A DNA stretch of 64,000 nucleotides from an uncultured Candidatus Poseidoniales archaeon (GTDB lineage: Archaea > Thermoplasmatota > Poseidoniia > Poseidoniales > Thalassarchaeaceae). The position numbers and the translations under genes are program-made. Of the stretch, positions 4,177-48,857 are shown piece by piece. The DNA lies in assembly GCA_964645485.1 (NCBI GenBank), contig CAZXZO010000004.1:1-64000 (forward strand), given 5' to 3'. Numbering within the stretch: position 1 is the stretch's first letter; every line of letters begins with the position of its first letter. The notes beneath the pieces were generated by a model. It searched no databases, was not told where the DNA came from, and was given only the letters and a program-made list of their open reading frames with translations.

Positions 4177-4234
4177 GATGAATCATTCTTCTGCGACACA
4201 ATCTTTTAGCGGGTGAATTGCCGGATTGGTACGA

Positions 4235-6106
4235 ATGTGCGGTATAACGGCTATTCTTGGTGATGGGGACACATCCCTAACTCGTGAGATGGCTGACCTG
4301 TTATCTCACCGTGGGCCTGATGGAATTCGGGTTTGGGGCGACGAGGTTTGCTCTCTTGGTCACTCTCGCCTTTCTATTGTTGACTTAATGGGTTCAGACC
4401 AGCCGATTGGTTCTGAACATGGTTGCTGGCTAGTACAAAATGGTGAAATCTATAATTTTCGTAGTTTAAGGAAAAAATACTCTGGATATGATTGGCGCAC
4501 AAAAGGAGATGGTGAGGTAATTCTTGCTTCTCACTGGTCCGCACTTCACAGTAATTCCAGCGTCCCTTCACCTGCAGAATCATTTCGCTCATCACTTTCC
4601 GGTCACTTGAGGAGAACTCCAAGTGCTTCCAAGCCAGGTAATCCAGCAACTGCGCATGTTGAATGGGTAAGTCAGTTGGATGGGATTTGGGGATTTGCTC
4701 TGTGGGATTCTAAGCGTCAAGAATTGATTCTTTGTCGCGACCCGTTGGGAGTTAAGCCTCTATTACGAACATTGACTCCGTCGGGAGAACTGCTAGTGGC
4801 AAGTGAAGCCAAAGCATTCCGGGCACATCCTGATTATGTATCAAAAATTGATGAAAATGCAATGTTAGCGAGGCTTGCATTTGAATATTCACTAGATGAA
4901 ACTACTTTGTTCGAGGGTGTTTCTCAGGTAGCACCTGCAACAATTGAGACTTGGGCTCTAGACCGGGAGGGTAGGGCAACTCTTACGGGGGTGGCAACTT
5001 ATTCTACTGAGAGAATTGTTCCTAGCGACACATGGAATCCTGAGTTAGACGCTCCCGTTTTACTTGATAGCCTGTGCAGTAGTATTGGTGACCGCTTGAT
5101 GTCTGATGTCCCACTTGGAATTATTCTATCTGGCGGCTTGGATTCAAGCCTAGTGGCTGGTCTTGCCCACAAGGCATCAGCACAAACTGGGCAACCGGTC
5201 CCAGAGTGTTGGACAGTTGCAGAAGATGAGGATAACCCAGATTTTCGTGCCGCAGAGGAAGTGTGTTCAGCACTTGATTTAGGTCATCACACATCAACAT
5301 TGGATGATGATTGCTTTTGGCGAACATTACCATCGTTAAGCTGGCATGGTGAAGACTTGGATATTTCAGTTCTATTTTTCCAGCCGCTTTTTGAGAAAAT
5401 GTCATCCGCAGTCACTGTTGGCTTATGTGGTCAAGGTGCTGATGAACTACATGGCGGATATCCTCGTTACCGAAATTTAGTAGGTCATCAAGAGTTGATA
5501 TCTTCTCGATTATCTGTCAGTCGACATCCCTTTGCAGACCATCTTGTGAATGATATTTCTACAGTTGAAGAACAAGGTCCGGCTCAGCCGTGGCGTGCTC
5601 AAAAGCATAATCCTGCAGAGGTGTTTTCAGATTTAACAAGCACTTTACAATTTGAAATGGACCACGGTCAACTAACTAACTTTCAGTTGCGTCTAGTTGA
5701 CCGCCACAGTATGGCTCATGGTTTAGAAGTCAGAGTTCCTTTTTTGGGTGCAGCACATCGTCAAGCATCAAGTACAATTCCAAAAGATTGGAGGGTACGA
5801 GGTCAACAAGAAAAACTTGCATTACGGGCAGCAGCAGCGATGACTGATTTACCTAAATCAATTGTTAATCGGCCAAAACTTCCAGCAGGAACTGCAACGA
5901 CTCCAACTCTTTTGGATGAAATGTTGACTGAATTAAAGCCGCATGCAAAAGAATGGGCTGCAAGTTATCCAAGATTAGAAAGAATACTCAATACTCAGCC
6001 GGATATGGCAATCGGATTACGACTTTTTGAATCGCTACACATAATTGACGGTGGCCTTGGTAGAGAATCCAAAGGACTTTGGGACTTGCTGCAGGATTTG
6101 GATTGA
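4235..6106 (+). CDS. asnB: Asparagine synthase (glutamine-hydrolysing)-like amidotransferase
   Basis: N-terminal MCGI, HRGPD, RLSIVD, NGEIYN, LSGGLDSS, GQGADELHGGY, SMAHGLEVRVPFL. Confidence 0.88.
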   Translation: MCGITAILGDGDTSLTREMADLLSHRGPDGIRVWGDEVCSLGHSRLSIVDLMGSDQPIGSEHGCWLVQNGEIYNFRSLRKKYSGYDWRTKGDGEVILASHWSALHSNSSVPSPAESFRSSLSGHLRRTPSASKPGNPATAHVEWVSQLDGIWGFALWDSKRQELILCRDPLGVKPLLRTLTPSGELLVASEAKAFRAHPDYVSKIDENAMLARLAFEYSLDETTLFEGVSQVAPATIETWALDREGRATLTGVATYSTERIVPSDTWNPELDAPVLLDSLCSSIGDRLMSDVPLGIILSGGLDSSLVAGLAHKASAQTGQPVPECWTVAEDEDNPDFRAAEEVCSALDLGHHTSTLDDDCFWRTLPSLSWHGEDLDISVLFFQPLFEKMSSAVTVGLCGQGADELHGGYPRYRNLVGHQELISSRLSVSRHPFADHLVNDISTVEEQGPAQPWRAQKHNPAEVFSDLTSTLQFEMDHGQLTNFQLRLVDRHSMAHGLEVRVPFLGAAHRQASSTIPKDWRVRGQQEKLALRAAAAMTDLPKSIVNRPKLPAGTATTPTLLDEMLTELKPHAKEWAASYPRLERILNTQPDMAIGLRLFESLHIIDGGLGRESKGLWDLLQDLD

Positions 6107-6115
6107 GGCTTCATA

Positions 6116-7363
6116 ATGACAGAATATAGAGGCCCAAACTTGCTTGCAGAATTATCTGCAAAGTTAGAGTCTAAGCGACAAGAATTGTCCGATTTCTTTG
6201 CTTCTGAGCGCAAAAAACTCCCTATGCCACTATACGCTTCTGTTGATATTAGAGATGCTGGCTGGAAAGTTGCTGCGGTAGACGCGAATGCTTACCCTGC
6301 CGGATTCAATAATGTGAGTTTGTCAGACCACACTCATCTTTCAGGACACTTAATGGAATGGCTGAATAAAGAACACCCGAACAAAAAATGGTTACACATT
6401 TGGCCGGAAAGTCACACAAGAAACAAGGGTTATGTTGAGAATCTAATAACACTCCAACAATTATTTTCACGAGATGGAAAAAAAGTCACGGTCGGTTCAC
6501 CACAACTTAACGAACTAGATGAGGTTGAAGGGTTAACTGGTGTACTAAAACTCTCAAACACCACAGTAAATGGAGAATTAAGAGTTGCAGGGTCGACGCC
6601 TGATTTGGTGATTATGAATAATGATTTGAGTAACGGTCCTTTACAAGGAATAGGCAGTGTGCCAGTTGCTCCACCTCAAGCAATGGGATGGTATCAGCGA
6701 AAAAAATCAAACCACTTTAGACATGTTCAACCTTTCATTGATAGAGCCGCTGAAATTCTAGAAATTGACCCTTGGTTATTGGGGACACACTGGTTTGTTA
6801 GTGAAGATAAATGTCTAGAAGAAGAAGCATGTAAAATTAAATTGGCGGCTCATGTTGATGCATTTCTGGAATTTTTGAAAACGAAGTACGATGAGTACGG
6901 AATTGAAGGTGAACCGGTGTTGTTCGTGAAGAACGACTCGGGCACTTATGGTCTTGGAATTCTTGAAATTCGTAATGGTGAACAATTGTTGAACTTATCA
7001 AACAGAAAAGTGAACAAATTGACTTATGGCAAGGGTGGTACAGAAGCGATTGATTTCCTAATCCAGGAAGGAGTTCCTACTGCTTTGAAAGTTGATGACC
7101 ATGTGATAGAACCATGCGTTTATGGCGCTGGTGGGCATAGTTGCTCAACATTTTACAGAGCAAATCCAAAGAAAGGTGTTATTGCAAATTTGAATACTCC
7201 TTCTACAAAATTTTTGCAGCCTGAAGATCTGTCAAAAATGGAAGGTGGAGATTTGATTCTAGGGCGTTTTGACAATTGGCATTCTCTAGTTGCCGAATTA
7301 GCAATGCTCGCAATGGGGTCAGAACTTGCTGAACTCAGTTCAAAAGACGTTGCTCATGATTGA
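6116..7363 (+). CDS. gshA: Glutamate--cysteine ligase, divergent GshA type
   Basis: PLYASVDIRDAGWKVAAVDANAYPAGFNN, HTRNKGY, VKNDSGTYGLG and IQEGVPT match the betaproteobacterial-type GshA family. Confidence 0.8.
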   Translation: MTEYRGPNLLAELSAKLESKRQELSDFFASERKKLPMPLYASVDIRDAGWKVAAVDANAYPAGFNNVSLSDHTHLSGHLMEWLNKEHPNKKWLHIWPESHTRNKGYVENLITLQQLFSRDGKKVTVGSPQLNELDEVEGLTGVLKLSNTTVNGELRVAGSTPDLVIMNNDLSNGPLQGIGSVPVAPPQAMGWYQRKKSNHFRHVQPFIDRAAEILEIDPWLLGTHWFVSEDKCLEEEACKIKLAAHVDAFLEFLKTKYDEYGIEGEPVLFVKNDSGTYGLGILEIRNGEQLLNLSNRKVNKLTYGKGGTEAIDFLIQEGVPTALKVDDHVIEPCVYGAGGHSCSTFYRANPKKGVIANLNTPSTKFLQPEDLSKMEGGDLILGRFDNWHSLVAELAMLAMGSELAELSSKDVAHD

Positions 7364-7853
7364 GCAACCAGGATTTCGTTTTGACTCCGTCTGCCGCGGA
7401 GTAATTGCCGAGGCTACCATCAGATTTGACAACTCGATGGCAAGGGACAAGAATTGTCCACGGATTTTTTGCCATAGTCGAGCCAACGGCTCGACTGGCA
7501 CCTGCTCTTTTCGCAGTTTTCGCCAATTCTCCATAAGTGGTTTTTTTTCCGAATGGCACTGTGTTTTGCAGGGTCAATAGAATACTCTTTTGAAATTCAG
7601 TTAATCCTGAATAATCAAGGCTGGGTTTTGTTGTCTCCTGTCCTAAAAAATATGCTTTTACCCATTTTTCAGCGTAATCCAGATGTTTACTTCCAGTCTT
7701 GCTTTGGGTCAGTGGAATGTCACACCACTGTAGCCGAGTTAATCCAATTTCACTTGCTTCGGCAATAATTGGTCCGATTGGCGTGGGGATTTTACGAACG
7801 CCTAACCTTCGCATTATCCATTGATTCTGAGATTCGGCCTTTGATTGTTTCAC
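7335..7853 (-). CDS. ogt: Methylated-DNA--protein-cysteine methyltransferase
   Basis: TYGELA, RAVGS and active-site VPCHRVV. The start could instead be 7814. Confidence 0.92.
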   Translation of the reverse strand: MKQSKAESQNQWIMRRLGVRKIPTPIGPIIAEASEIGLTRLQWCDIPLTQSKTGSKHLDYAEKWVKAYFLGQETTKPSLDYSGLTEFQKSILLTLQNTVPFGKKTTYGELAKTAKRAGASRAVGSTMAKNPWTILVPCHRVVKSDGSLGNYSAADGVKTKSWLLNHEQRLLN

Positions 7854-7856
7854 AAA

Positions 7857-8159
7857 TCAAGAATCATCTGATGTTTCCGATTCATCATCAGATTCCTCTT
7901 CATCCTTTTCCATTCCAACTATTTCATAATTTGAAGGGAAAAGTGCAACCACAATTCCAGCAATCATCGCTGCCAATCCCCAGTAGAATCGTTGTTGTAC
8001 TATCATCATTTCTAGAGCAACAACAACCAGTAATAAGCCGCCCAAATTTGAAACCCATACAAGGGTTTTGAAGGTTGAAAGAGTCACTCCTTTGTGGTGT
8101 TGTGAGCGGTAGGGTCCAAACTCTGCACCAAAGCGAACGGGGTCTTTTTCCTCACCCAT
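7857..8159 (-). CDS. Hypothetical two-TM membrane protein with acidic tail
   Basis: ORF fills the gap between ogt and the ferredoxin; two hydrophobic helices. Confidence 0.65.
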   Translation of the reverse strand: MGEEKDPVRFGAEFGPYRSQHHKGVTLSTFKTLVWVSNLGGLLLVVVALEMMIVQQRFYWGLAAMIAGIVVALFPSNYEIVGMEKDEEESDDESETSDDS

Positions 8160-8163
8160 TTAA

Positions 8164-8496
8164 TCACCTGTCAATCATGACTATTGCATCAGTAGGGCAG
8201 GCCAATACGCACAGCCGGCACCCAGTGCAGGGGTCTCGTAAAATCTTGGCTTTTTTATTTACTTCAACATGTAAAAGAGAATTTCTCAAGGGCGCGTCGT
8301 AGAGTTCAATAGCATCATCATCACAAACTATGAGGCATTGGTCACAGCCAATACATTGGTCTACATTTACAAATGCAACTACCTCTTCGCCTTCAGGAAT
8401 ATCCTCAGCGCTAATCTCGTACATCTCAGAAAGTCGTTGTTTGATGCGTTTCGCCTCAAGTTGGCGGCGCTTCGTGACATCGTCAACCTGACTCAT
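8164..8496 (-). CDS. 2x[4Fe-4S] ferredoxin with N-terminal extension
   Basis: CIGCDQCLIVC and CTGCRLCVLACP. Confidence 0.88.
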   Translation of the reverse strand: MSQVDDVTKRRQLEAKRIKQRLSEMYEISAEDIPEGEEVVAFVNVDQCIGCDQCLIVCDDDAIELYDAPLRNSLLHVEVNKKAKILRDPCTGCRLCVLACPTDAIVMIDR

Positions 8497-8567
8497 CTGA
8501 TTTCATCCTCAAGGCTTTCCACTTTCAAGTTGCTTACGTCGGATGGAACTTGATTGTTCGCTTGGAA

Positions 8568-11468
8568 TCAAGCAACAAGTTCGTCTGTGGCTGATGTTTG
8601 CATCGTTTCGGATGCTCCTTTGCCAAGAGCATTCTTCTCATCCACTTGACGGGCAAGGAATGAAACTACATCTAGAATTTCAAAGTTGTAACTTGGGTCA
8701 CCCTCGAATTTGAGGCACTCAAAGTGCGCTACACACTTCGGGCATGATGTAATCATCATCTCAGCCCCTGTCTCAATCACTTCTTCAAACCGGTTAACTC
8801 GCAGGGTTCGACTATCTTCATTGCAGGACATCATGCTTGAGACTCCACAACAAAGAGCGTCATCATGGTGGTGTTCCATTTCAACTAATTCTACACCCTC
8901 AACACTCTCAATGAGTTCACGTGGTTCATCATAGATGTCCATTTGTCGTCCAAGCCGGCATGGGTCGTGGAAGGTTACTGTCTTAGGGCAACTTGAAGTC
9001 AACTCAACATCGAATCCAGCTTCCTTGAGGTATTCAGTGGTGTGCATAACCTTGATGCCTTCTAGTTCGTAATCCATTGCAAAGGTGCGGAAACATTCAG
9101 CACAACTGCTGACAAGTGTGTCAATTCCGCTTTCTTCCAATTTCTGCTTGTTGAAAGTCTTTAATTTTTCAGCGACATCATCCATGCCTTGCCATTTTTG
9201 GTCGTGGCCACAGCATTTCATGAAATCTCTACCGAGATAAGAGACATCTACACCCATCTCATCGAATAAGGTGAACGCGGCAGTTGTTGTTTCTCCAAGA
9301 TTCATCTCACCCTTGTTAAGATGGCTGAACACTAAGTCTTGGTCAAGGTAATCTACACAACCTGGGTAGTAAGCAACATTTGAGTTAATTGGATATTCAT
9401 CGGTTGGGATGAAGTCGTCATCTGCATCCTCTTCTGCTTCTGCAGCCAAGACTGCCTGCAAAACAGTGTGCGGAATATTTGCTGCTGGTGGCCCACCAAC
9501 AACCAAGTTTCTACGGATATCAACATATGAGTCGTAGTCAACAAGTTGAGGACAAGCATTGGTACAAGCGGTACAGGTTAAACAAGAATACATTGGGACT
9601 CCATCGTCTTCATTGTTCCATGTGTTGTAAATGATGTTCAATTTATCTCCACCAGTGAATAATCTAACTGGGCACGCATCATCACACAGGTCACATCCGT
9701 AACACTTGTTCATTTCATACTCATATCCTCTAGCCATACTACGCATTAGAACAAAAATAATTGCTCCAAGGGCAAGTGGCGGGATGAACAGGGAGTAGGT
9801 AAGTTTGGCATCCAAACTCTTTGGATTTTGGTGGTAGGTAGGGTTCTCAATCAATAACGATGACAGGTCATTTGTCGCTAGACCTGCTAATGCTAATTCA
9901 GTTCCATTGGTTCTGTCAAGCGCCATTCCAGTATCTGGGTTGAGAAGTAGTGGTTGGAATACAGATACATCAGAAGTAGCATCAACCACTACCGTTGCGT
10001 TGCCTGCATCGAAAGTTGAATCAACCATCATTGTTACAGTATACCGTCCAGGTGCAACATCAAATGACTTGGTGGTGCAAGTTGCACCTTCTTCTAAGTC
10101 GCCACTAAATCCTGCAACACTTGTGCCACTTGCATCAGTTACATCTACACTGATACTGTGGTCGCCTGCTTTTCTTTCGGAGGCTCTGTAGGTACAAGAT
10201 AGATCCATAGTTAACTCATCAACACCTAAGTCTTCTACATTCAGAGAGTAACTGCTTGAAAGCGAACTATCACCTGAGTAATTGTAAACTTCAGTGAATC
10301 CATTGACGCCTCCAGTTACTGCACCATCTGTTGTCAGAGTTTGTTTGTGATTATTTTCGTCAGCAAAATCAATGATATTATCTTGGACAGGCTGATAAAT
10401 ACCCCAATTCAACCAATTTTCAGCAGGTAACAGACAATAATCAGAACGTTCAACACCATCTTCTGTGAATTTGGAATCTTGCCAAAGGATGCTTCCTGAA
10501 CTGGCAGCGTAGGTCAGGCAATTCGCTTCCATGCTACTCCATTCGTGTCCTTCATGGATTGCGATTAAGGAATCTTCTGGTTGGTTCCTTAGAGTTGCCA
10601 ATTCGTCAACATCATCCATAGCACCTAAGCCACCAACATCCCAAAATCCTCCATTATACATTGGCCAAGAGACAACAGAGAGTAAGACAGCAATTACTAA
10701 TGCTCCAAGGGCAATCTTTCGTCCAGTTTTCGGCCGGACTCTAGAACCTGCGGCTTTTATCAGATATGCTTTAGCAATAAAGAACAACATTATCCAAATT
10801 AAAATTCCCGTCAAAATCCAGGGGACTGCATTGAACACATCAGCAATCCATGGTTCTCGAACACCACAACTTAGACCAGCATGAGAGTTAAGTTTACAGT
10901 AATCTGAACGATTATTCCCATATAATTGAAGGAAGATATTGATTGAATATACACTAATGAACCAAACGTGTGCCAAGTAAATTACACCGGCGGTGGCAAA
11001 CCAAGGGTCTTCCACTCCACGTTTCGCACGTCCACCAAGGAATGGTGGGAGTGCTAAGATTCCAACCGGGAAACCTGTGAGGAATGCACCCCACCAACCT
11101 GCATTCCAAGAAATCACAGGTGTACCAAAGAAATTCCCAATTATATCTGGGAGCGGTATATCGAATTGGGGTAGATACTCTCCCCAACGAAGGTACCCAT
11201 AGGAGAATAGAACATACCAATCAGGGAACACGAACCCAGCCTGAGCAAACGGGTCAGCAGCGCTGTGGAGAGGTGGTGGGATAAGCCATGCATAAAATGA
11301 TAGAACCGCCATAATTGATGCAAGAATAATGCTGTCTCTGAGAACTTCATGCGGCCAAAGTGGATGACCGACAAAGGTACGACGACGCTCTTCGCCATCA
11401 TTTTGTAACTTGTCTTTCTCACGCATATACACATCTGCAATGCGGCCAAAATTGTCTAACATACCCAT
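8568..11468 (-). CDS. Cytochrome b C-terminal (subunit IV-like) protein fused to an external domain and an Hdr/GlpC-like 2x[4Fe-4S] + 2xCCG oxidoreductase
   Basis: WPHEVLRD, ADPF and PDWY (PEWY Qo-site equivalent); about 6 TM helices; CYGCDLCDDACP and CLTCTACTNACP; two C..CCG..CxxC domains (MKCCGH/CAEC and ALCCGV/CPKC). Confidence 0.88.
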   Translation of the reverse strand: MGMLDNFGRIADVYMREKDKLQNDGEERRRTFVGHPLWPHEVLRDSIILASIMAVLSFYAWLIPPPLHSAADPFAQAGFVFPDWYVLFSYGYLRWGEYLPQFDIPLPDIIGNFFGTPVISWNAGWWGAFLTGFPVGILALPPFLGGRAKRGVEDPWFATAGVIYLAHVWFISVYSINIFLQLYGNNRSDYCKLNSHAGLSCGVREPWIADVFNAVPWILTGILIWIMLFFIAKAYLIKAAGSRVRPKTGRKIALGALVIAVLLSVVSWPMYNGGFWDVGGLGAMDDVDELATLRNQPEDSLIAIHEGHEWSSMEANCLTYAASSGSILWQDSKFTEDGVERSDYCLLPAENWLNWGIYQPVQDNIIDFADENNHKQTLTTDGAVTGGVNGFTEVYNYSGDSSLSSSYSLNVEDLGVDELTMDLSCTYRASERKAGDHSISVDVTDASGTSVAGFSGDLEEGATCTTKSFDVAPGRYTVTMMVDSTFDAGNATVVVDATSDVSVFQPLLLNPDTGMALDRTNGTELALAGLATNDLSSLLIENPTYHQNPKSLDAKLTYSLFIPPLALGAIIFVLMRSMARGYEYEMNKCYGCDLCDDACPVRLFTGGDKLNIIYNTWNNEDDGVPMYSCLTCTACTNACPQLVDYDSYVDIRRNLVVGGPPAANIPHTVLQAVLAAEAEEDADDDFIPTDEYPINSNVAYYPGCVDYLDQDLVFSHLNKGEMNLGETTTAAFTLFDEMGVDVSYLGRDFMKCCGHDQKWQGMDDVAEKLKTFNKQKLEESGIDTLVSSCAECFRTFAMDYELEGIKVMHTTEYLKEAGFDVELTSSCPKTVTFHDPCRLGRQMDIYDEPRELIESVEGVELVEMEHHHDDALCCGVSSMMSCNEDSRTLRVNRFEEVIETGAEMMITSCPKCVAHFECLKFEGDPSYNFEILDVVSFLARQVDEKNALGKGASETMQTSATDELVA

Positions 11469-11482
11469 TTTGATTCACTCCT

Positions 11483-12349
11483 TCAATGTGGCTCCGCTAT
11501 TCCTTGTACCCAGACAATAAACAGGTGAATGATAATCAGCGTGGTTACAATAACTGGTAAGATAAAGACGTGCAAGAAATACATTCTCGTAACTGCCGCC
11601 CCTGAAAGTGATGTTCCACCAAACATGAGTGTTGCAACCCAGCCACCGATAAGTGGTGTTGAATTTGCCATTGCGATTCCAATAGTTGCTGCTCCAAACG
11701 CTAGAGCATCCCATGGCAGCAGATACCCAGAATATCCAAACACAATGGTAAGTAACATCAATCCAACGCCAATAAGCCAGTTTAATTCTCGTGGGTTTCG
11801 GTATGCACCAGTAAAGTACACTCTGCACATATGCAAGAATACTGAGGCTACCATGAAATGAGTAGCCCAATGATGTATGCTTCTGATAATGTAGCCAAAT
11901 GGCAATTGAGTCATGATGAATTGCATGCTTGAATAGGCAGGAGTTGGATCACCATCTCCTCCGGGGACATAGTAGATTCCAAGCACAGTTCCTGTGATGA
12001 TTAGGATAATGAAAGCAAGGAACGAAATTCCACCTAAACAGTATAACGGATACCAATACCAAATAATTCGCAGTTTGTATTTTTCGGCGTGGGTTAGAGG
12101 CATTTGTCGGTGTACTGATTGGTATGCGTCGCGACTCATAGCCCAGTAATCTTGGATTCTGAATCTTGTATCTAACCATGAAAAGGTCCACAGGAATAAT
12201 TTTTCAGCAAGACCCATTTTTCCTACAGATTCAACCGCTCGGAGAATTTCTTTTCGAGGGATGTCTTCATTTTCTTTGCGCAAAGTCAAGGCTACTAACA
12301 CCGTAACGATGATGATGAATAGCCAAAGGAACCAAAATTGTAGTAACAT
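11483..12349 (-). CDS. petB: Cytochrome b N-terminal subunit (cytochrome b6-like)
   Basis: YCLGGI, heme ligands in RSIHHWATHFMVASVFLH and FLHVFILPVIVTTLIIIH, GAYRNPRELNW, GYSGYLLPWD, ends IAEPH. Confidence 0.93.
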   Translation of the reverse strand: MLLQFWFLWLFIIIVTVLVALTLRKENEDIPRKEILRAVESVGKMGLAEKLFLWTFSWLDTRFRIQDYWAMSRDAYQSVHRQMPLTHAEKYKLRIIWYWYPLYCLGGISFLAFIILIITGTVLGIYYVPGGDGDPTPAYSSMQFIMTQLPFGYIIRSIHHWATHFMVASVFLHMCRVYFTGAYRNPRELNWLIGVGLMLLTIVFGYSGYLLPWDALAFGAATIGIAMANSTPLIGGWVATLMFGGTSLSGAAVTRMYFLHVFILPVIVTTLIIIHLFIVWVQGIAEPH

Positions 12350-12366
12350 ATCATTTCCTCCTTTTT

Positions 12367-13242
12367 CTAATTACAGTAAGTGTACCAATCGAGAATCTCA
12401 ACCACTCCTTCAGCCTCAAAGTCAATCACTTCTAGAACATCATTGTTCACTGTGAAGGGAATAAGAGGGATTCCAACAGGTGCAGGCCCGCCAGTTCTTT
12501 TGATTCCAAAATAATTGAAAGCAGCACCTGTATTTTTGTTGATGTTTGTATTCTTTTCTATTGTGGTTGGGTCAAATCTACTCGAGTGGCAGATACAGAA
12601 TAATTTGTTACCACCTGAATCTAATCCACCGGGTAACCAGTTATCGGCGGTGAAATCATTGGCAACAAGTTGCCATCCAGGTATACAGCAGAGATGTGTG
12701 CAGCGAGACATAATAATGACGATATTATCATGAATTTTTAGGGTTGACCATTTGGGGTCATCTTCGATTTCACCCCCGAAACCAATGATAGCACCTGTTT
12801 GGTCAACTCCGTCTTTGAATTGGAAGCGAGGTAGACCACTTGAGATAGGAGAACTCTTGTTTTCTTCGTGCGGAACATAAACCACAGTAACTGGCATCCC
12901 TCCCCACACACCTTGGGCTCCTGCCATTTTGGTCGTAGCGGTTTGTGATTGCCCTTCAAAGTCAGATTTTTTCATTGGTTCCATGTGTTTTGAGCCGAAC
13001 CACACTGTCGCTTCTTGTCCCTTAGGAACCCAATAACTGATGGAATTGTTACCACCATCACCATCTTTGGTCCCCATAAGAAGAGATGCAAATCCGATGG
13101 AACCTAGGCTAGCCATCGTGATTACACCTGCAGCAGAATTGAAGGAATATCTCATGAAGCGACGTCTATCCAAACTGTAGCCGGTTTCTCCCGTTGCTTC
13201 ATCAGCATTTGGAGATGGGCGAAGTCTGAATTCTCTTGCCAT
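12367..13242 (-). CDS. Rieske iron-sulfur protein
   Basis: Tat-like LDRRRFMR followed by a TM helix; Rieske boxes CTHLCC and CICHSS. Confidence 0.9.
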   Translation of the reverse strand: MAREFRLRPSPNADEATGETGYSLDRRRFMRYSFNSAAGVITMASLGSIGFASLLMGTKDGDGGNNSISYWVPKGQEATVWFGSKHMEPMKKSDFEGQSQTATTKMAGAQGVWGGMPVTVVYVPHEENKSSPISSGLPRFQFKDGVDQTGAIIGFGGEIEDDPKWSTLKIHDNIVIIMSRCTHLCCIPGWQLVANDFTADNWLPGGLDSGGNKLFCICHSSRFDPTTIEKNTNINKNTGAAFNYFGIKRTGGPAPVGIPLIPFTVNNDVLEVIDFEAEGVVEILDWYTYCN

Positions 13243-13245
13243 TCA

Positions 13246-13695
13246 TCACACCTCGTATTTTTTCCAACTCTCAGGGTCTTTTGGACCAATGAATTTCCCT
13301 CGTCGATGCTTGACAACGACAAGGTCTGGTAGAACCCACTTTAGATAGACAATTCCCATTATTATCAGAGTAACCATTGTCATTGCGAAATGGTAAGAGA
13401 GTTGCTGTTGGTCCCAGCCGTTGAAAAGTCCGTAGGTCATACTGCCCGCCCAGAAAAGGGTCCATCCTAAGCCCCAAATTGAGATGAGAATAACAAGTGC
13501 CGAGGTGCCACTTGGGGTAACTGCTGCTCGAACAACAGTTCCTGGTTCAACGCGGTTGAACACACCATGGTCAATCGCTGACTCGTATGTTTCTTCACTT
13601 AGTTCAACTCCTTCAAGGGCAGTGCGTGCATCCTCTACGCTTACTTCCCCGGCAGCAACTTGCTGCAGCATTTTGGTGATAACATCTTGATTCAT
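13246..13695 (-). CDS. Hypothetical two-TM membrane protein in the Rieske/cyt b operon
   Basis: SD GAGGTGA upstream, two TM helices, stop 3 nt from the Rieske start. Confidence 0.7.
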   Translation of the reverse strand: MNQDVITKMLQQVAAGEVSVEDARTALEGVELSEETYESAIDHGVFNRVEPGTVVRAAVTPSGTSALVILISIWGLGWTLFWAGSMTYGLFNGWDQQQLSYHFAMTMVTLIIMGIVYLKWVLPDLVVVKHRRGKFIGPKDPESWKKYEV

Positions 13696-13769
13696 CAGTT
13701 GTCACCTCTGTTGCCTAGATAAGAAGTTAAGGCATCTCGCCAGCATTGAAGTCTGTCTTCACTGCTCAT
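13695..13769 (-). CDS. Putative 24-aa micro-ORF MSSEDRLQCWRDALTSYLGNRGDN
   Basis: GAGGTGA SD 6 nt before the ATG; ATGA overlap with the upstream stop and TGATG overlap with the downstream start. Confidence 0.4.
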   Translation of the reverse strand: MSSEDRLQCWRDALTSYLGNRGDN

Positions 13770-14593
13770 AATTGGTCACCTCTGCGTAGGTGTTTGATTC
13801 TGAGTCGGAGAAGGTTACTGCGTCCAACGTAATGGTGACTGAAACCATAGCGCAAGAAAAAGCCACAAAACAAGAGTACGGCAATAACTGCACCAAATCC
13901 TAGTAGGCCAAGCCAATGAGCTCTGAAAGGTGCTCCCATGCTGTGGAGGTCAATTTCACCACTTGAGGCTGCGGGTGCCTCAATGTTGCCATCTCCAGCA
14001 AAGATTGCTCTAGTGCCGCCATTGTCATTGCCCTCAACTAGGTCAAAGAAAAGTCGGTTGTAGGCATCTGGGGCCATTGGAGCAGAGTTTCCATCTACCG
14101 CATTTCCTGCGACCCAGAAGGTTACACTACCGCTCCCAGAACTTGGAGCAGTCCAAGTTACAACCCATGTTCTGTCCTGAACTTGCGCACCATCTGATGT
14201 GTGAGTCATGGTTTGTTCACTGCCATCATCTTGAACTAGGCTTTCATAACCTGCACCTGGAGTTAGGACTCCAGAAGATACTCTCATTGAGAATCCGCCA
14301 GTGTTAGAGTGTCCGCTAGCCATTTCAGGTCCGCCAATCAACTGGATTGTTAGGCTGTAAGATGTTCCTTCAGCCCATGCATATGGCACTCCATCAACAA
14401 TCAATGTGACAGTGTCAGATGGTGCGATTTCATTATTTGTGTGACAAGTGCAACCGCTTATTGCCACGTCTGTATCGCCTTCTGCTCTATCACCTGTAAT
14501 CCCATCAGATTCAGCAATAGTTCCACCTGCTAAGAGGAGTGCAGAAAGCACCACAATCAGCGGTAAGCGAAAGTCGTTGATTTTACCGCCCAT
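13766..14593 (-). CDS. Exported, C-terminally anchored Reeler/choice-of-anchor-V-like protein with CxCH motif
   Basis: Signal peptide, SGCTCH, GGFSM, QTMTH, WVVTWTAPSSGSGSVTFWVAGNAVDGN (Reeler-like) and a C-terminal TM helix. Confidence 0.7.
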   Translation of the reverse strand: MGGKINDFRLPLIVVLSALLLAGGTIAESDGITGDRAEGDTDVAISGCTCHTNNEIAPSDTVTLIVDGVPYAWAEGTSYSLTIQLIGGPEMASGHSNTGGFSMRVSSGVLTPGAGYESLVQDDGSEQTMTHTSDGAQVQDRTWVVTWTAPSSGSGSVTFWVAGNAVDGNSAPMAPDAYNRLFFDLVEGNDNGGTRAIFAGDGNIEAPAASSGEIDLHSMGAPFRAHWLGLLGFGAVIAVLLFCGFFLRYGFSHHYVGRSNLLRLRIKHLRRGDQL

Positions 14594-15149: not shown

Positions 15150-16052
15150 GTGCATGATGGTAGTCTATTGATTGCAGGCGTTGGCGGCCTTGGTTCACAG
15201 TGGGCTAAAAGAGCCCACGCCCGATGTGCAGATGAATGTGATTTGCTACTAGTAGATGCAGATGAATCTTCCTTTGAGGATTCACGACACGCACATTGTT
15301 TGCCACTTGGTGATTCTTCTGATGCTGGATGTGCAGCACTTCCAGAATTAGCGGCTTCACATTACATGAAAGCCTCTGCAATAATGGAAAAAATTCTAGA
15401 ACCTGTGGAATTAATGATATTACTCACATCACTTGGAGGTGGAGTTGGTTCTGGTGCTGCACCGGCATTGGCTGCCCAGGCATCTCGAAAAGGGGCACTT
15501 GTAATTACGATTGCAGCGATGCCATTTGAAGAACATATAGCGAGATGTGAAATTGCTGTTCCTGCATTCAATCGGCTAGAGGATTCATCTGATGTTTGTG
15601 CTCAACTTTCCTTGGACCGTTTGGCATGGCAGGCTCGTAGCCGAGGAGTGGATTGGAGAATCCGTCCATCATGGGTAGAAGAGTTAGTTCAGGGATTGGT
15701 CTTGACACTTGGGCAAGTCGGGATAATCAACCTTGATTTGATGGATCTACGTTCAGTAGTTCAAAGAAAAGGAGGGGCCACGATGATTGTTGCAGAAGGC
15801 GAGGCAAATGACCCTGAGGGACTTTTCCTCAAAGCCCTCGCGGCTCCTTTAGCAGGATTGGAGGTTATCGGCGCGAGTGGTTGCCTCTTACAACTTGAAG
15901 GTGGAAGGCAAATGTCGATTTATCAAATGGAACAAGTGGCTGATGCTTTCACGCGGGGATTAACTGAAGACGCACAAGTAATTCTAGGTGCAAGGCATTC
16001 CGATGATTTAGATGGGAAGATGAGAGTAGTTGCCGTAGTAAGTGGGCTCTGA
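15150..16052 (+). CDS. Divergent FtsZ/tubulin-family GTPase
   Basis: AGVGGLG, GGGVGSGAAP (tubulin signature variant), AMPFEE, T7-like NLDLMDL and VILGA...MRVVAVVSG. Confidence 0.8.
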   Translation: MHDGSLLIAGVGGLGSQWAKRAHARCADECDLLLVDADESSFEDSRHAHCLPLGDSSDAGCAALPELAASHYMKASAIMEKILEPVELMILLTSLGGGVGSGAAPALAAQASRKGALVITIAAMPFEEHIARCEIAVPAFNRLEDSSDVCAQLSLDRLAWQARSRGVDWRIRPSWVEELVQGLVLTLGQVGIINLDLMDLRSVVQRKGGATMIVAEGEANDPEGLFLKALAAPLAGLEVIGASGCLLQLEGGRQMSIYQMEQVADAFTRGLTEDAQVILGARHSDDLDGKMRVVAVVSGL

Positions 16053-18004: not shown

Positions 18005-20581
18005 CTAATGTTTTCCAGCCCAACTATCCTCAACAGATAAGGCCTTATTCTTGAGAGGTATAATCTTTCGATAGACTTCAGAAGGAGAGCACATCTCTCC
18101 ACCTACCGTTAATAATCGGGCAAGAGGGATGCCAAAATGTTCTTCGTTTTCAACTAATAACGGTTGGATAATGTCCCAATCCGCGTCAGTTAGTTCAACA
18201 AATTCGCCTCCATTCAATTGCGAGGAAGACAGCACATTGGTTGGGTCGCGAACATAAATCGCTCCGCCACTCGAGAGACTGAACAGATTTCCACCCGGAT
18301 AAGGTGTATTTAGTTCAGAGATTTCCCCATTGCTTTCAAACTTGAGTCCGTTGACTACAACGAATCCGCCTCCATCTAACGGGTCTCCAGCCATGAAGGA
18401 TTCAGCAAGATAGTCCAAAGCTGTGCCATTAATGACTAGTTTTGGGCTGCCAACGGAGTTTATCATAGGTCTACCAGCAGCGTTTCCTTGAACAAATAAT
18501 CTACCACCTTTTGCTCCGTATCCATAACATTGCCCAACATCTCCATGAACAACTAAAGTTCCTGCCTTGTGAATTTGGGCTACTTGATCCTGTGCATTTC
18601 CATGCATGTGAATAGTCATTCCATCACTACCACTACCAAGGTAGTCGCCAACACTTCCGAAGACGTCGATTCTCACATCTGAGGTCTCCATACCAAATCC
18701 GTTGCCAATGAACCGGTGTCCATGACAATGTGTAACGACAAAGTTACTCCATCCTGTATTGTACAACGCCACTAACTCTCGAGCAAGAGATTCCGTTCCT
18801 TCAATCGGATAAGGTCGTGCGTCTACAACAATTGCTTGGCCTTCGTTTTGAGGTTCAGGTAGGTGGCCAGGGGATTTTTGGCCAGAGAAATGTTCGCATG
18901 GAGTTGTCCCAGCATGATTCAAAATCCCCATTATTGCGTCTTCAACGCAATCTAACCATCGGCTTGTTCGTAGACTTCCTGTGTCATATTTTCTGTTCAA
19001 TAGGAGGCATAGCAAGTCGATTGATTGTTTCCTTGAATGTTGGCTAGCATTGGAGCCTATTTCTGCAAGAAGGGCACGAGCAGCAGGCCAATCAAGGTCA
19101 GGGAAAGCAGTTACAATCTGCCCGAAGACTTCGATTGGTGTCCACTCAGTTGGCCAATCAAATCCTGAATCCATTGCTGCTGGTTCAATCTCAAAGTTGC
19201 CTTCTGGTTTTGTATCAACGATTGCACCAAATTTGTTGCTCATGATTAGTTCATGTCCGCCATTTTCATCAGGTTTTACATCAAATATGAATGAGCCTCC
19301 ATCTGTGTAAGAGCCGCCTCTAGCATTCCAGTATTCGTCACAACGGCGCCAGAATCGCTTATCTTCGGATGATAAGCTTTCTAATACTGCATCGATAACT
19401 TGCTTTTCGCTACCACAAAAAGCGATGCCGACCTCACCACGCTGGTAAGAGAAAACTTGCGGCCTTAACATGCTGGTATCAGTTATTCCAATTAATTGAT
19501 GAGTCAGGCCATCTGCTTTGGCGATTATGAAGAACCAAGGTCCATCTGGTGAGCCATGAATGTGGGTTTTTTGGATTGCTTCGTAAATCTCTTGTTTTTC
19601 GTCAGGCAGCATCACAAAATCAAGTTCGCCTGTGGGCGCTAAACTCTCTATCACATATTCCATCGGGTATCCGTATACTCGAGAATGGAGGTCAAAACCG
19701 AGTGCTGCTACTTCAGTATCTGTGAAGAAGAGCGGTTCCATTCCTCTTTGGCCAAGATAGTCCTTGACTGAAACATAATTTGAGAAATCCCCGTTGTGTA
19801 CAAGAGCAACGTCAACACCCTGTCCAAATGGGTGTGCACCACCTGGGTGAGTTACCCTGCCTCTTGTTGGGTAGCGGTGGTGTCCAATCCAAACATGTGC
19901 TGTTACGTCATCTAGTCTATAGTACCGAATCACGTCTTCAGCATATCCGACAATCTTGAGAATAATCATATTTTGTCCATGACTTAGAACGAACGCATCT
20001 GCTCTTTGTTCCTTAGCATAAAATTCAACATTTAATTTGTGAGTATTCTGGAAGACCATTTCATCCCACATGGTTTTTTTGTTGGCGAAATCTGATTCTG
20101 TCAGATTTCCATCGGAGAGGAATTTTTCCACAGCGGCTGGTTTTGGCCTTATGAAATAACAAACAACATTTGGTGGTTGCACATCTAGATTTTCAAGTTC
20201 TTTCCAATTATCCAGAGTGGATACTTCATGAGTGTGGTCAACATCAAAATTTGAATTAATGAATTGTTCCTCAACATCTTTTCGCACTGAATCATCTAAG
20301 TAAGCAACTGCATACAAGTAATCATTTTTGAGAATCTCAGGGCTAACACCGAACTGTTCATGGTCAAGTCCAACCATTGCTACTCCGCCGCCTTTTCCGT
20401 TTCCACGGTTACGCATTTGTTCAAGTGAATTGAATAGATGGCGTCCAGCAACTGGGATTTCACATGCCAAACCAACAACTCCACAACCTCCTTCGGCTGC
20501 ATCGTCTTCATTCAACTCAAACTTTGGTAAACGGCTGTTCATTAATCGCCTTGAATCAAGAAGTGCTTCTGCATTCTTCAT
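18005..20581 (-). CDS. Glutamate synthase subunit: class II glutamine amidotransferase + GXGXG domain
   Basis: EGG|CGVVG Ntn nucleophile, RNRGNGKGGG, GHHRYPT, HNGD, TDTEV and C-terminal GXGXG repeats (GDVGQCYGYGAKGG). Confidence 0.88.
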   Translation of the reverse strand: MKNAEALLDSRRLMNSRLPKFELNEDDAAEGGCGVVGLACEIPVAGRHLFNSLEQMRNRGNGKGGGVAMVGLDHEQFGVSPEILKNDYLYAVAYLDDSVRKDVEEQFINSNFDVDHTHEVSTLDNWKELENLDVQPPNVVCYFIRPKPAAVEKFLSDGNLTESDFANKKTMWDEMVFQNTHKLNVEFYAKEQRADAFVLSHGQNMIILKIVGYAEDVIRYYRLDDVTAHVWIGHHRYPTRGRVTHPGGAHPFGQGVDVALVHNGDFSNYVSVKDYLGQRGMEPLFFTDTEVAALGFDLHSRVYGYPMEYVIESLAPTGELDFVMLPDEKQEIYEAIQKTHIHGSPDGPWFFIIAKADGLTHQLIGITDTSMLRPQVFSYQRGEVGIAFCGSEKQVIDAVLESLSSEDKRFWRRCDEYWNARGGSYTDGGSFIFDVKPDENGGHELIMSNKFGAIVDTKPEGNFEIEPAAMDSGFDWPTEWTPIEVFGQIVTAFPDLDWPAARALLAEIGSNASQHSRKQSIDLLCLLLNRKYDTGSLRTSRWLDCVEDAIMGILNHAGTTPCEHFSGQKSPGHLPEPQNEGQAIVVDARPYPIEGTESLARELVALYNTGWSNFVVTHCHGHRFIGNGFGMETSDVRIDVFGSVGDYLGSGSDGMTIHMHGNAQDQVAQIHKAGTLVVHGDVGQCYGYGAKGGRLFVQGNAAGRPMINSVGSPKLVINGTALDYLAESFMAGDPLDGGGFVVVNGLKFESNGEISELNTPYPGGNLFSLSSGGAIYVRDPTNVLSSSQLNGGEFVELTDADWDIIQPLLVENEEHFGIPLARLLTVGGEMCSPSEVYRKIIPLKNKALSVEDSWAGKH

Positions 20582-21906
20582 TCCAAATCACTCCTAGTGT
20601 AGACTAATAGGTCGGTACGACCAACCAAATCTTTGACATCACTTAGTCCTAATTTTCGTAGGATATCTCGAAGACGCCATTGAAGAGCAGTGTAATAGTT
20701 ATCTAATCTTTTTACTGCCCAATCTTGCTGTACCCATTCTTGCAATTCGATATCCGTGGTTGTCAATCCCCAAGGGCAACCTCTACCAGAAGGTCCGCCT
20801 TCACAATTTGAACAGCGAGTACAACCCATTGCAACTAAGTCACTTGTACCTAGAACAACCCCATCTGCTCCTAATGCGATGGCTTTGGCGATATCATCTG
20901 CAGTTCGGATGCCACCACTAGCAATCAAAGTTACATTCTCTCTAATTCCTTCTTTGATGAGGAATTTGTGAACTTTCGGTACTGCTAACTCAATCGGCAT
21001 TGCAATATTTTTCTTGGCAATTTCTGGCGCTGCTCCAGTTCCGCCAAAGGCTCCGTCAAGGTGGATGATGTGGGCTCCAGCATAAAATGAACCAACAGCC
21101 ACCATGTCAACATCGTGTGGTGTTGAAACTTTGACAGATATCAACGCATCAGGGTTGATTGTCTGCACCCAATCGATGTGTTTTGAGTGGTCTTCAACGG
21201 AGTAAGTTGAATGGAATGGGAATGGGCTGAAAAGGCTGACAAATGGCACGCTGCCCCGCATCTTTGCAACCTCCTCGCCTGCTTTGGTAGCCAATAAGTG
21301 GCCGCCAAGTCCCGGTTTTGCCCCCTGGGCATATTTGAATTCAACAATCGGGGCGGCTTGGATGGATTTTTCTTCAACACCAAATAAGCCAGTAGCAACT
21401 TGTGTAATCACGTGGTCTCTGCATTCGTACAATTCAGTGGGATAGCCACCTTCTCCAGTTGACATGTATGTATTCCAATTCTTGGCGTGGATTGCGCGCG
21501 ACATCATCACATTAACCGAGACGGAACCATAAGACATCCCTCCTCCATAGATCGGGATTGCAGGGGTTAATTTCTTCCTGTGGTCACCGCGCCTATTCAG
21601 TGGAATGCTGGTTTTGATGTCTTCAGAGTGTTTGAGCCATTTTTCTTCATCCAACATTTTGAAATCAAGTCGGTCAAATCCTCCGTTACTATCTCCGGTT
21701 TTGTAATTTAGATTTTCAGGCAGTGTTCCAGTGGCTGCCATGTGCCAAGTGGAGAGAATCAATTCATCTGTCCAACGAGCATCTCCCAAAGCCGGTGGAA
21801 TCTCAAATTCTCCAGAGGTCCGTGCTTCCATTCCATCGTGCATAAGGTGCGTAATCTTGTGTATCATCGTCTCGCTTGGGAATACTGGTAGGTTACTCTT
21901 GGCCAT
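20578..21906 (-). CDS. Glutamate synthase FMN-binding catalytic subunit
   Basis: GGMSYGSVS, STGEGG, QVATGLFGV, KYAQGAKPGLGGHL, DGAFGGTGAAP, CTRCSNC...CPWG. Confidence 0.9.
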   Translation of the reverse strand: MAKSNLPVFPSETMIHKITHLMHDGMEARTSGEFEIPPALGDARWTDELILSTWHMAATGTLPENLNYKTGDSNGGFDRLDFKMLDEEKWLKHSEDIKTSIPLNRRGDHRKKLTPAIPIYGGGMSYGSVSVNVMMSRAIHAKNWNTYMSTGEGGYPTELYECRDHVITQVATGLFGVEEKSIQAAPIVEFKYAQGAKPGLGGHLLATKAGEEVAKMRGSVPFVSLFSPFPFHSTYSVEDHSKHIDWVQTINPDALISVKVSTPHDVDMVAVGSFYAGAHIIHLDGAFGGTGAAPEIAKKNIAMPIELAVPKVHKFLIKEGIRENVTLIASGGIRTADDIAKAIALGADGVVLGTSDLVAMGCTRCSNCEGGPSGRGCPWGLTTTDIELQEWVQQDWAVKRLDNYYTALQWRLRDILRKLGLSDVKDLVGRTDLLVYTRSDLE

Positions 21907-45052: not shown

Positions 45053-46069
45053 ATGCCGATGGCACGAGAGGTGGAAGAGTCCGACCCCGAGCAAGACGGG
45101 GTTCGTGAACGACTTCAAGCGATGGAATCTAAGATGAGAAAACTCTCTGACCAGAGAAGGACTCACAACGAATCTGCTCGCACAAACGCCGATAAGAGAG
45201 ATGCTGTTCAGAAGCAATATGGCTCTTTGCGTGAAGAAATTAAAGAAATTTTGGACTCTCAAAAAGAGGTGAGAGTTAAAGCGAAAATTCACCAAGCAAG
45301 AAGAGATGCAATCCAAGAACAACTTAGAAATTTATTTTCAAAGTCAAAATCAGCAAAATCAAATAGGGACAAATCAGTTGTTTTGCAACTTTCAGAGAAG
45401 AGTGCAGAAGCAGAACAAATTGAATTCCGTTTAGAAAGGGACGGGACTCTGAAATTGGATGCTGAAAACCGTCTTCACAAGAAATTGAAATCTCTAAAAA
45501 ATGAAATCAAAGAACTTGAACCTCAAGTTCAGGCTGAGATGCGAATTAAAATAGATATTAACGACCTTGAGGGTTCCATCGAGCAACTAAAAGCAGAAGC
45601 AGATGAAGAACACAAACAGATGGTTGCGTTTAATGATGAAGCGGATAAAATCTGGGAAGAAGTAAAACCAAAATTCGATGAACGAGATTTCTTGAAGGCC
45701 GAAGGAGACAGACTTCACAATTCATTCGTTCAGTGTCGAAAGGATGCAGATGCAGTACACCAACAAATTGAGGAATTAATGGCTCAGGTTACGTCTGCTC
45801 GTAAAGAATTACAAGGAATTAGAGATGAGAGATCATCATGGATTACTCTTCACAACAAATCAGTTGAAGAATCAACTAGCACACCTCAGAAGAATGAGGA
45901 ATTAGCAGACAATCTTGTCTCAAACCTGATGGGTTCCGGAGCGCTATCCCTAGGTGGGACCGCTGGCCGGGTGGCAGAAGATAGTAGTCGCTCAAACCAC
46001 CGGAGAAAGGGACGGAAAACCACATTGGCAAGGCGAGGTAATCGCGGAAGTAGCAAAAAATCTGAGTAA
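45053..46069 (+). CDS. Coiled-coil protein (COG1340-like) paralogue 4
   Basis: KRDA, AEADEEH, EGDRLH and DADAVH periodic His pattern. Confidence 0.75.
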   Translation: MPMAREVEESDPEQDGVRERLQAMESKMRKLSDQRRTHNESARTNADKRDAVQKQYGSLREEIKEILDSQKEVRVKAKIHQARRDAIQEQLRNLFSKSKSAKSNRDKSVVLQLSEKSAEAEQIEFRLERDGTLKLDAENRLHKKLKSLKNEIKELEPQVQAEMRIKIDINDLEGSIEQLKAEADEEHKQMVAFNDEADKIWEEVKPKFDERDFLKAEGDRLHNSFVQCRKDADAVHQQIEELMAQVTSARKELQGIRDERSSWITLHNKSVEESTSTPQKNEELADNLVSNLMGSGALSLGGTAGRVAEDSSRSNHRRKGRKTTLARRGNRGSSKKSE

Positions 46070-48856: not shown

Positions 48857-48857
48857 A

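Follow-up and report, generated by a model that had tools for sequence, protein, structure and literature searches.

What would a respiratory Rieske/cytochrome b complex do with an iron-sulfur module of the heterodisulfide reductase type joined covalently to one of its membrane subunits? The question is raised by a 966-residue open reading frame (ORF) at 8568..11468 on the minus strand of the 64,000-nucleotide stretch of contig CAZXZO010000004.1 analysed here (the window), in which a part resembling subunit IV of cytochrome b6f complexes, a large outside domain and an Fe-S module follow one another in a single chain. The genome is metagenome-assembled (55 contigs, 82% complete), and the names on homologues place the host in the Poseidoniales (Marine Group II, MGII). 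The best explanation of the locus as a whole, to which we would give an even chance, is that a b6-type quinol oxidase with a cytoplasmic Fe-S wire serves as the respiratory complex III of the Poseidoniales. By analogy with related enzymes, the Fe-S arm probably gives electrons from the cytoplasm direct access to the Q-cycle, or a direct way out of it.

Architecture and conservation of the fusion

The subunit-IV-like part of the protein comprises residues 1–270 (10659..11468, on the minus strand like the other parts of the chain) and carries the motif PDWY at residues 82–85 and five transmembrane (TM) helices in all. Hydropathy peaks at residues 46–64, 127–145, 162–180, 214–232 and 252–270, with a sixth peak at 556–574, and the loop at 233–251 is strongly basic, with seven K/R. 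Residues 271–555 (9804..10658) make up the outside domain, a Poseidoniales-specific insertion that appears to be an acidic beta-sandwich (46 D/E) and in which no CxxCH is found. The sixth helix (TM6, residues 556–574; 9747..9803; hydropathy 2.08) brings the chain back to the cytoplasm and is followed by MRSMARG. The Fe-S module, residues 575–966 (8571..9746), contains two [4Fe-4S] motifs of the form CxxCxxCxxxC at 589 and 629 (C589–C599 and C629–C639), followed by two five-cysteine CCG domains of the noncubane-cluster type (C704/C752/C753/C789/C792 and C837/C873/C874/C909/C912). Pfam recognizes CCG in two stretches (9.6e-26), Fer4_8 (1.8e-7) and several 4Fe-4S dicluster families. A profile built from 29 homologues matches the cytochrome b C-half of bc1 (3.5e-9) and b6f subunit IV (2.4e-7) with its N-terminal part, and mycobacterial EtfD (9e-39), HdrC (5e-10) and HdrB (2e-5) with its C-terminal part. 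The layout described in the sequence-only reading that preceded this analysis (a 966-aa ORF with PDWY, about six TM helices, an external domain of ~270 aa, and a pair each of 4Fe-4S motifs and complete five-cysteine CCG domains) was thus borne out by motifs, hydropathy, Pfam and profile, the outside domain measuring 285 residues, and the physical architecture is very probably as described.

The Fe-S module is predicted to lie on the cytoplasmic side of the membrane, because the N-terminus would be inside, as in b6f subunit IV, the number of helices is even and the loops follow the positive-inside pattern, and because an Fe-S domain that lacks an export signal can be made on this side only. The topology therefore argues against a scenario that the earlier reading had named as damaging to it, in which the Fe-S part would be found outside the membrane. 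The outside domain has four conserved cysteines and an invariant histidine (H374), and its AF2 model (pLDDT 77) gave generic jelly-roll, CBM and GOLD matches with TM-scores of at most 0.26. A redox role for this domain was considered and rejected, because no CxxCH and no cupredoxin or cytochrome fold was found in it, and its structural matches are of the generic jelly-roll kind only.

A word-index search returned 634 homologues; the 120 of these that were listed share 60% identity or more with the fusion (nearly all are 920–970 aa long and 61–92% identical), and those bearing names belong to Poseidoniales/Thalassarchaeaceae. In a survey of 301 Thermoplasmatota genomes, the full-length open frame was found in 21 of 21 genomes of the family of the window and in 42 of 42 of the other Poseidoniales family. 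An exhaustive search of representative proteins yielded eight clusters at 50% identity that combine PDWY, two Fer4 motifs and CCG. In 29 aligned fusions, some only 33–39% identical to this one, PDWY and the eight Fer4 cysteines are invariant, as are eight of the ten CCG cysteines; C792 is present in at least 90% of rows, and C753, the second cysteine of CCG1, is absent from some non-MGII fusions. Mis-assembly or a frameshift joining a subunit IV gene to an adjacent HdrD-like gene might be suspected in a window taken from a 55-contig metagenome-assembled genome, and a natural split form does exist in a sister order (see below). However, an ORF of the same length was found in each of the 63 Poseidoniales genomes sampled, and it recurs across hundreds of independent assemblies. 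In addition, an 11,086-nt contig from another sequencing run covers 7864–13242 with 11 substitutions and zero indels, and contigs from a third run cross both domain junctions with substitutions only and no indels. An artefact absent from relatives, which the earlier reading had also listed as fatal, is ruled out by these observations, and its probability is close to nil.

The closest solved structure to the Fe-S module is EtfD of Mycobacterium smegmatis (PDB 9ojn_A, 3.3e-23). None of the curated NCBIfam equivalogs is reached, all scores lying far below the cut-offs: 106 bits against 385 for TfrB, 84 against 800 for LdhH, 43 against 278 for GlpC, 40 against 333 for GlcF and 31 against 400 for DsrK. 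Assignment of the module to any of these families was rejected on these scores. A tree was computed from 98 modules with at least 300 aligned residues, taken from the best 150 representatives (IQ-TREE quick search, LG+G4, drawn with midpoint rooting); it comprised representatives without family names and the EtfD encoded by the same genome, P0126. All subunit-IV-fused modules formed one clade (SH-aLRT 96), and P0126 fell into a separate clade (SH-aLRT 100). P0126 is a 666-aa EtfD/EMO orthologue (contig C9, locus L002, 1012-3012, minus strand; match to 9ojn_A at 3.2e-109) that has a membrane domain of its own and, as in EtfD, a reduced first CCG motif (CSG); it is 27% identical to the fused module, and its gene adjoins one for methionine sulfoxide reductase. 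EtfD/EMO proteins are defined by a NarI-like heme-b membrane N-terminus, whereas the N-terminal part of the fusion is a subunit IV. The fusion shares with HdrD the two [4Fe-4S] motifs and two five-cysteine CCG domains, but HdrD is paired with the NarI-type HdrE and acts on CoM-S-S-CoB in a methanogen, and the module here is fused to subunit IV in an aerobic member of the Poseidoniales. The kinship to HdrD/GlpC claimed earlier therefore holds for the layout of two [4Fe-4S] and two CCG domains and fails for membership, since the module is not HdrD, GlpC or EtfD proper. Its own clade, its sub-cut-off scores and the presence of a separate EtfD mark it as a separate branch within the HdrD-like superfamily, devoted to Rieske/b6 complexes. 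Its closest unfused sisters, P0145 and P0151, are encoded on contigs of 1.2–3.3 kb, one of them being followed by HdrC- and HdrB-like genes.

Related arrangements occur elsewhere in the Thermoplasmatota. In a sister order of the same class (L021/G249 and L022/G028), the fusion is replaced by a split form, in which a protein consisting of subunit IV and two 4Fe-4S motifs (353–429 aa) is followed by a separate two-CCG protein (~330 aa) and then by a 321-aa polyferredoxin, the N-terminal part of which matches the Thermoplasmatales zinc-containing ferredoxin family below its cut-off (1.7e-20). Four other Thermoplasmatota genomes, from three families, encode fusions of 600–790 aa that lack the outside domain and have mostly four TM helices; in the seven non-MGII fusion clusters that were aligned, 4–12 residues stand in place of this domain. 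The short fusions adjoin a Rieske gene and a cytochrome b with long N-terminal Ig-like (Big_5) domains (L018/G056, L019/G074, L020/G050 and L023/G036). HdrA-like pieces and an MvhD/FlpD domain follow the fusion in G074, G050 and G036, and a polyferredoxin lies downstream of it in G056; the loci with HdrA-like pieces would represent a Rieske/b6 core joined to a possible flavin-bifurcation module. In MGII, the fusion is followed by a 110-aa ferredoxin in all 11 same-family loci examined. As judged from the encoded sequences, the distal partner in the loci examined is always a low-potential Fe-S or flavo-Fe-S carrier, and in none of them is it a recognizable thiol-handling enzyme. A ferredoxin-type partner is favoured by this distribution, the neighbours being a ferredoxin in MGII and a polyferredoxin or HdrA/MvhD-like proteins in other Thermoplasmatota.

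The b6-type core and its operon

The fusion gene is one of eight genes in a row on the minus strand of the window, separated by intergenic gaps of 3–71 nt. The Rieske iron-sulfur protein (P0003, 291 aa; 12367..13242) has a twin-arginine N-terminus (RRRF), one TM helix at 38–56 by hydropathy, and the boxes CTHLCC and CICHSS; it matches TIGR01416 under its cut-off (1.8e-9), and the Pfam scan gave no match for this protein. It is followed by a split cytochrome b6-type subunit (P0002, 288 aa; 11483..12349; Pfam Cytochrome_B 2.7e-42), the best PDB matches of which are to cytochrome b6 (4e-44) and which has four heme-ligand histidines and an extra N-terminal TM helix. In an alignment of homologues, H159/H160, H173, H260 and H275 are invariant, providing two histidine pairs for hemes bL and bH. 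The YCLGG of P0002 aligns with the FYCLGG/FYCIGG of cytochrome b6, which is the heme-ci-binding motif; it was seen in 15 of the 17 relative loci scanned, distant ones included, and its cysteine, C104, is invariant in a 15-row alignment. Cytochrome b thus keeps the heme-ci cysteine, the covalent heme ci itself being putative. With a Rieske protein, a split four-helix cytochrome b and a separate subunit IV bearing a Qo motif, the core is, by its motifs and matches, of the b6 type. The PDWY variant of the Qo motif is correlated with menaquinol and low-potential Rieske proteins (Kao and Hunte, 2014, PMC4122944).

The c-type cytochrome of b6f and b6c complexes (cytochrome f, c1 or a di-heme c, with CxxCH) has no counterpart here: no CxxCH occurs in minus-strand frames of at least 60 aa between 7300 and 14700. 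The earlier statements that a Rieske gene and a cytochrome b N-half precede the fusion, and that c1 is absent, therefore stand. A candidate for the missing function is encoded at 13766..14593. P0005 (275 aa), an exported protein of beta-sandwich type, has a signal peptide, an invariant G-C-T-C-H about 20 residues past the likely mature N-terminus and a C-terminal TM anchor; across 25 homologues, GCTCH is invariant and the anchor and tail are near-invariant. P0005 matches the NCBIfam choice-of-anchor V family (1.8e-21). In a Foldseek search with its AF2 model (pLDDT 69), a reeler domain came first (1.5e-5), and cytochrome f was also found (1.3e-3), with TM-scores of 0.26–0.29. CxCH is, to our knowledge, not among the known heme-attachment motifs. 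In its layout P0005 is reminiscent of cytochrome f, and it may be a functional stand-in for cytochrome f/c1, although the link to cytochrome f is weak.

The remaining genes of the row encode smaller proteins. P0004 (149 aa; 13246..13695), a small membrane protein with two TM helices by hydropathy, is encoded 3 nt upstream of the Rieske gene and has a weak match to Pfam DUF7318, below the cut-off (2e-5); it is probably an accessory subunit. Downstream of the fusion lies the gene for the ferredoxin P0399 (110 aa, two [4Fe-4S]; 8164..8496; Pfam Fer4_21 1.1e-12), which has an N-terminal helical extension of ~40 aa. The best NCBIfam match of this protein is the rnfB subfamily (RnfB ferredoxin domain), below its cut-off (2.5e-12), and P0399 may correspond to the orphan 'RnfB' described for MGII by Tully. 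It is followed by P0398 (100 aa, two TM helices; 7857..8159), which carries the motif PVRFGAEFGP and has no match in Pfam or NCBIfam; it sits after the ferredoxin in 11 of 11 same-family loci and is probably a small subunit of the complex. The row ends with a methyltransferase gene of the MGMT type (7335..7853).

The only Cytochrome_B match in this 82%-complete genome is the one in the operon, and a heme-copper oxidase is also encoded, so that the operon specifies the sole recognizable complex III of the organism. The host had been presumed to be an aerobic heterotrophic archaeon, and both the Poseidoniales names of its homologues and the heme-copper oxidase agree with this. The genome also contains two 2-oxoacid:ferredoxin oxidoreductases of the POR_N type. 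On contig C10 (locus L003, 75-2349, plus strand), the gene for a 469-aa SdhB-like protein, which begins with a flavodoxin-like stretch, precedes that for a 305-aa SdhE-like protein with a single CCG, a pair that suggests a type-E succinate dehydrogenase. Elsewhere in the window, a 300-aa protein of the tubulin/FtsZ family (Tubulin 5.4e-15, FtsZ_C 7e-13) is encoded at 15150-16052 on the plus strand, divergently from the operon. Three adjoining genes with glutamate-synthase domains (GXGXG/GATase and Glu_synthase twice) at 18005-23417 on the minus strand look like an archaeal split glutamate synthase. The GC content is 0.376 in 46001-50000, against ~0.44 in the rest of the window, and this segment may be an island or a gene set of differing composition.

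Proposed electron flow through the iron-sulfur arm

Only 15 residues (linker MRSMARGYEYEMNKC) separate TM6 from the first Fe-S cysteine, and the linker is 14–16 residues long in four more fusion clusters (P0128, P0135, P0137 and P0140), so that the first cubane cluster would sit at the membrane surface, below the Qi side. From there, the Fe-S chain would exchange electrons with heme bH/ci, as in EtfD and HdrDE. The equivalent cluster of EtfD, formed by its first Fer4 motif, is ~7 A away from heme b and adjoins the quinone site (PMC13083937), and EMO uses the same type of module purely for electron transfer (bioRxiv 10.64898/2026.08.18.745454). By this analogy, we consider it fairly probable that the arm is wired to the hemes. 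Quinol would still be oxidized at Qo and the high-potential electron passed out, possibly via the cytochrome-f-like CxCH protein, while the arm would bring low-potential electrons from the cytoplasm to quinone at Qi. The donor would be ferredoxin reduced by the 2-oxoacid:ferredoxin oxidoreductases, its electrons being delivered through the ferredoxin of the operon, and the expected chain would run from the ferredoxin clusters through the two noncubane and then the two cubane clusters to heme bH/ci and the Qi quinone. The complex would then be a combined ferredoxin:quinone and quinol:acceptor oxidoreductase. An inward feed from ferredoxin is the most economical reading in an aerobe that has two genes of the 2-oxoacid:ferredoxin oxidoreductase type and this complex III only, and it is the leading option for the direction of flow, even if we put its chances at somewhat less than even. 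For Ca. Angelarchaeales, in which complex III has hdrD-like and rnfB-like neighbours, ferredoxin entry at this complex had already been proposed in one sentence (Diamond et al., 2022, PMC9038741).

Several points weigh against this inward feed. Transfer between the Fe-S chain and heme bH/ci is something we infer from tethering and analogy only. Both CCG domains have all five cysteines, like those of the catalytic HdrB/HdrD, and would suit thiol/disulfide chemistry equally well. The HdrA-like partners found elsewhere in the Thermoplasmatota could indicate that electrons are bifurcated or confurcated instead of simply being taken from ferredoxin. A NuoF-like gene and a true EtfD are present in the genome as well, so that electrons have other ways into the quinone pool. 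A complex prediction in which cytochrome b (85–288), the fusion (25–270) and three hemes were paired with the module (578–966) gave a score of 0.00, which weighs neither way on docking.

The arm might instead carry electrons outwards, in a quinol-based bifurcation in which the low-potential electron from Qo would pass via bL and bH/ci into the arm and reduce a cytoplasmic acceptor at the paired noncubane clusters; this acceptor could be a low-molecular-weight disulfide, or ferredoxin or NAD(P)+ reached through HdrA-like partners. The MGII motifs, in keeping the full cysteine set of HdrB/HdrD, differ from the reduced first motif of EtfD, which serves electron transfer only, and the PDWY/menaquinol type of chemistry would imply a low-potential b branch. 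Anammox bc complexes with cytoplasmic oxidoreductase subunits have, moreover, been proposed as producers of NAD(P)H (PMC12954380; PMC5600118). However, the second cysteine of CCG1 is absent in some non-MGII fusions, so a two-cluster catalytic site is not a clade-wide feature, and the EMO of S. aciditrophicus has two noncubane clusters without disulfide chemistry. The conserved operon partner is a ferredoxin rather than a thiol-handling protein, an obligate aerobe would profit little from Q-cycle electrons sent against the membrane potential, and reduction of ferredoxin by menaquinol is strongly uphill. Outward flow is regarded as unlikely, although it is the main rival of the inward feed. Beyond the operon, on the plus strand, a glutamate-cysteine ligase gene (GshA, 5.7e-92; 6116-7363) and an asparagine synthase gene (4226-6106) are found; the former, 1.2 kb away, is suggestive only, and a gamma-glutamylcysteine-type thiol in the host would bear on a disulfide-reductase function. 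Of the hybrid bc-Hdr complex envisaged in the sequence-only reading, the covalent joining of subunit IV to a cytoplasmic module was upheld, but nothing specific to a disulfide substrate was found and the neighbours are of the ferredoxin type.

Entry from another donor would follow the EtfD/EMO scheme, with the module oxidizing reduced electron transfer flavoprotein (ETF) from beta-oxidation and amino-acid catabolism and the b hemes of complex III relaying the electrons to quinone. Among solved structures, mycobacterial EtfD is indeed the nearest to the module (3.3e-23, or 9e-39 by profile), EtfAB is encoded in 58 of 59 good Poseidoniales genomes, and MGII have been described as degraders of fatty acids and proteins (PMC6336850); the failure to find ETF in the 82%-complete assembly itself is uninformative, since these relatives have it. 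ETF was nevertheless demoted as the donor: a much closer EtfD orthologue with its own membrane domain, P0126 (3.2e-109 to 9ojn_A), is present in the same genome, the fused modules form a clade (SH-aLRT 96) apart from that of EtfD (100), and the ETF genes lie ~150–180 kb from the operon where one contig holds both (in G185, ETF is at 731 kb and the fusion at 880 kb). As the co-encoded partner is, again, a ferredoxin, this donor seems improbable. It is likewise improbable that the module is a structural, regulatory or relict appendage, acting in assembly, redox sensing or protection, for example by draining an over-reduced b chain to limit reactive oxygen. Such a module is dispensable for the canonical Q-cycle in every bc/b6f complex studied, and its partners differ by lineage (ferredoxin, polyferredoxin or HdrA/MvhD-like), both of which speak for this reading. 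Yet 17 of the 18 cofactor cysteines are kept down to 33% identity (16 without exception, C792 in 90% of rows or more), none of the sampled Poseidoniales genomes lacks the fusion and a dedicated ferredoxin is co-encoded, a combination that indicates selection on a working electron-transfer chain.

If ferredoxin does feed the complex through its arm, a more far-reaching proposal can be made, which we hold tentatively and think somewhat doubtful: the arm would be a hard-wired ferredoxin:quinone reductase acting through heme ci, that is, a covalently fixed version of the ferredoxin-to-b6f cyclic route and a present-day representative of the 'membrane-anchored dehydrogenase' stage from which, in the proposal of Dibrova et al., bc complexes arose, and its relatives with HdrA/MvhD-like partners would couple the Q-cycle to flavin-based bifurcation or confurcation. 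The Poseidoniales rank with the most abundant archaea in the sunlit surface waters of the ocean, and this operon encodes the only recognizable complex that connects their quinone pool to the terminal oxidase. If electrons do flow through the arm, it would be a respiratory entry or exit point missing from standard metabolic models, and estimates of the energy conserved from ferredoxin-producing catabolism of amino acids and 2-oxoacids would change. The complex also offers a natural test case for two questions: whether electrons arriving from the cytoplasm or stroma can be taken up by heme ci, and whether Rieske/cytochrome b complexes descend from dehydrogenases anchored by cytochrome b.

Comparison with known systems

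Genome surveys have reported that MGII have cytochrome b and Rieske proteins without a canonical bc1 complex (PMC6336850), and an 'MGII-specific complex III' is already in print, as are the oxidoreductase-bearing bc complexes of anammox bacteria, the bacterial fusions with Fer4 and MvhD and the neighbours of complex III in Angelarchaeales. Among open-access papers and preprints, none was found that deals with the fusion to subunit IV, its heme-ci context, its presence throughout the Poseidoniales, the split and shortened versions or the HdrA/MvhD-linked relatives.

The core resembles b6f complexes and the b6c menaquinol:cytochrome c reductases of Firmicutes and Heliobacteria in its split four-histidine cytochrome b, its CxGG cysteine, its subunit IV with a Qo motif and its Tat-type Rieske protein, and PDWY is the motif of menaquinol-using Firmicutes (PMC4122944). 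Unlike these complexes, it is encoded without a CxxCH cytochrome f, c1 or di-heme c, a beta-sandwich CxCH protein being found instead. Its subunit IV is enlarged by three TM helices, by the outside domain and by the Fe-S module, which accounts for 390 aa in the cytoplasm; its b subunit has an extra N-terminal helix, and a ferredoxin and two small membrane proteins are added. The arm is reminiscent of HdrDE, DsrMK, HmeCD and EtfD (EMO), in which a cytoplasmic module of two [4Fe-4S] and two CCG domains is placed on a heme-b membrane protein next to a quinone site, and, as in EtfD, the first Fer4 motif is the one nearest the membrane. In those enzymes, however, the anchor is a NarI-type cytochrome, whereas here it is a Rieske/cytochrome b6 Q-cycle core; furthermore, the module is joined to subunit IV rather than to the heme-binding subunit, and it forms a clade of its own.

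In the Rieske/cytochrome b complexes of anammox bacteria (Kuenenia; cytochrome b subfamily G of Dibrova et al.), too, a large Fe-S oxidoreductase on the cytoplasmic side accompanies a small cytochrome b and a Rieske protein; these complexes have been discussed as bifurcating or reverse-running bc complexes (PMC5600118; PMC12954380). Their oxidoreductase is an NAD(P)-binding flavo-Fe-S protein and a separate subunit, whereas the HdrD-like CCG module described here is fused; the anammox complexes belong to anaerobic bacteria and have multiheme cytochromes c among their components. In the PDWF-FeS clade of bacterial cytochrome b, Magnetospirillum and Turneriella have a complete cytochrome b, Qo motif included, that continues into a 4Fe-4S domain and MvhD (Kao and Hunte, 2014). 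These bacterial fusions differ from the archaeal one in having no Rieske gene in the cluster, and CCG domains have not been reported for them. A precedent for the idea of ferredoxin entry comes from Ca. Angelarchaeales, a related order of the Thermoplasmatota, in which hdrD-like and rnfB-like genes stand beside complex III (Diamond et al., 2022). The sentence in question makes no mention of a subunit IV fusion, of heme ci, of the distribution of the system or of the outside domain of MGII. In the chloroplast b6f complex, a cyclic route from ferredoxin/FNR to heme ci has been proposed, by which low-potential electrons from the stroma would enter at Qi by way of the exposed heme ci; the donor binds only transiently and the route is debated. 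In the Poseidoniales complex, by contrast, such a route would be hard-wired by the covalently attached Fe-S chain together with the ferredoxin of the operon, if this is indeed their function.

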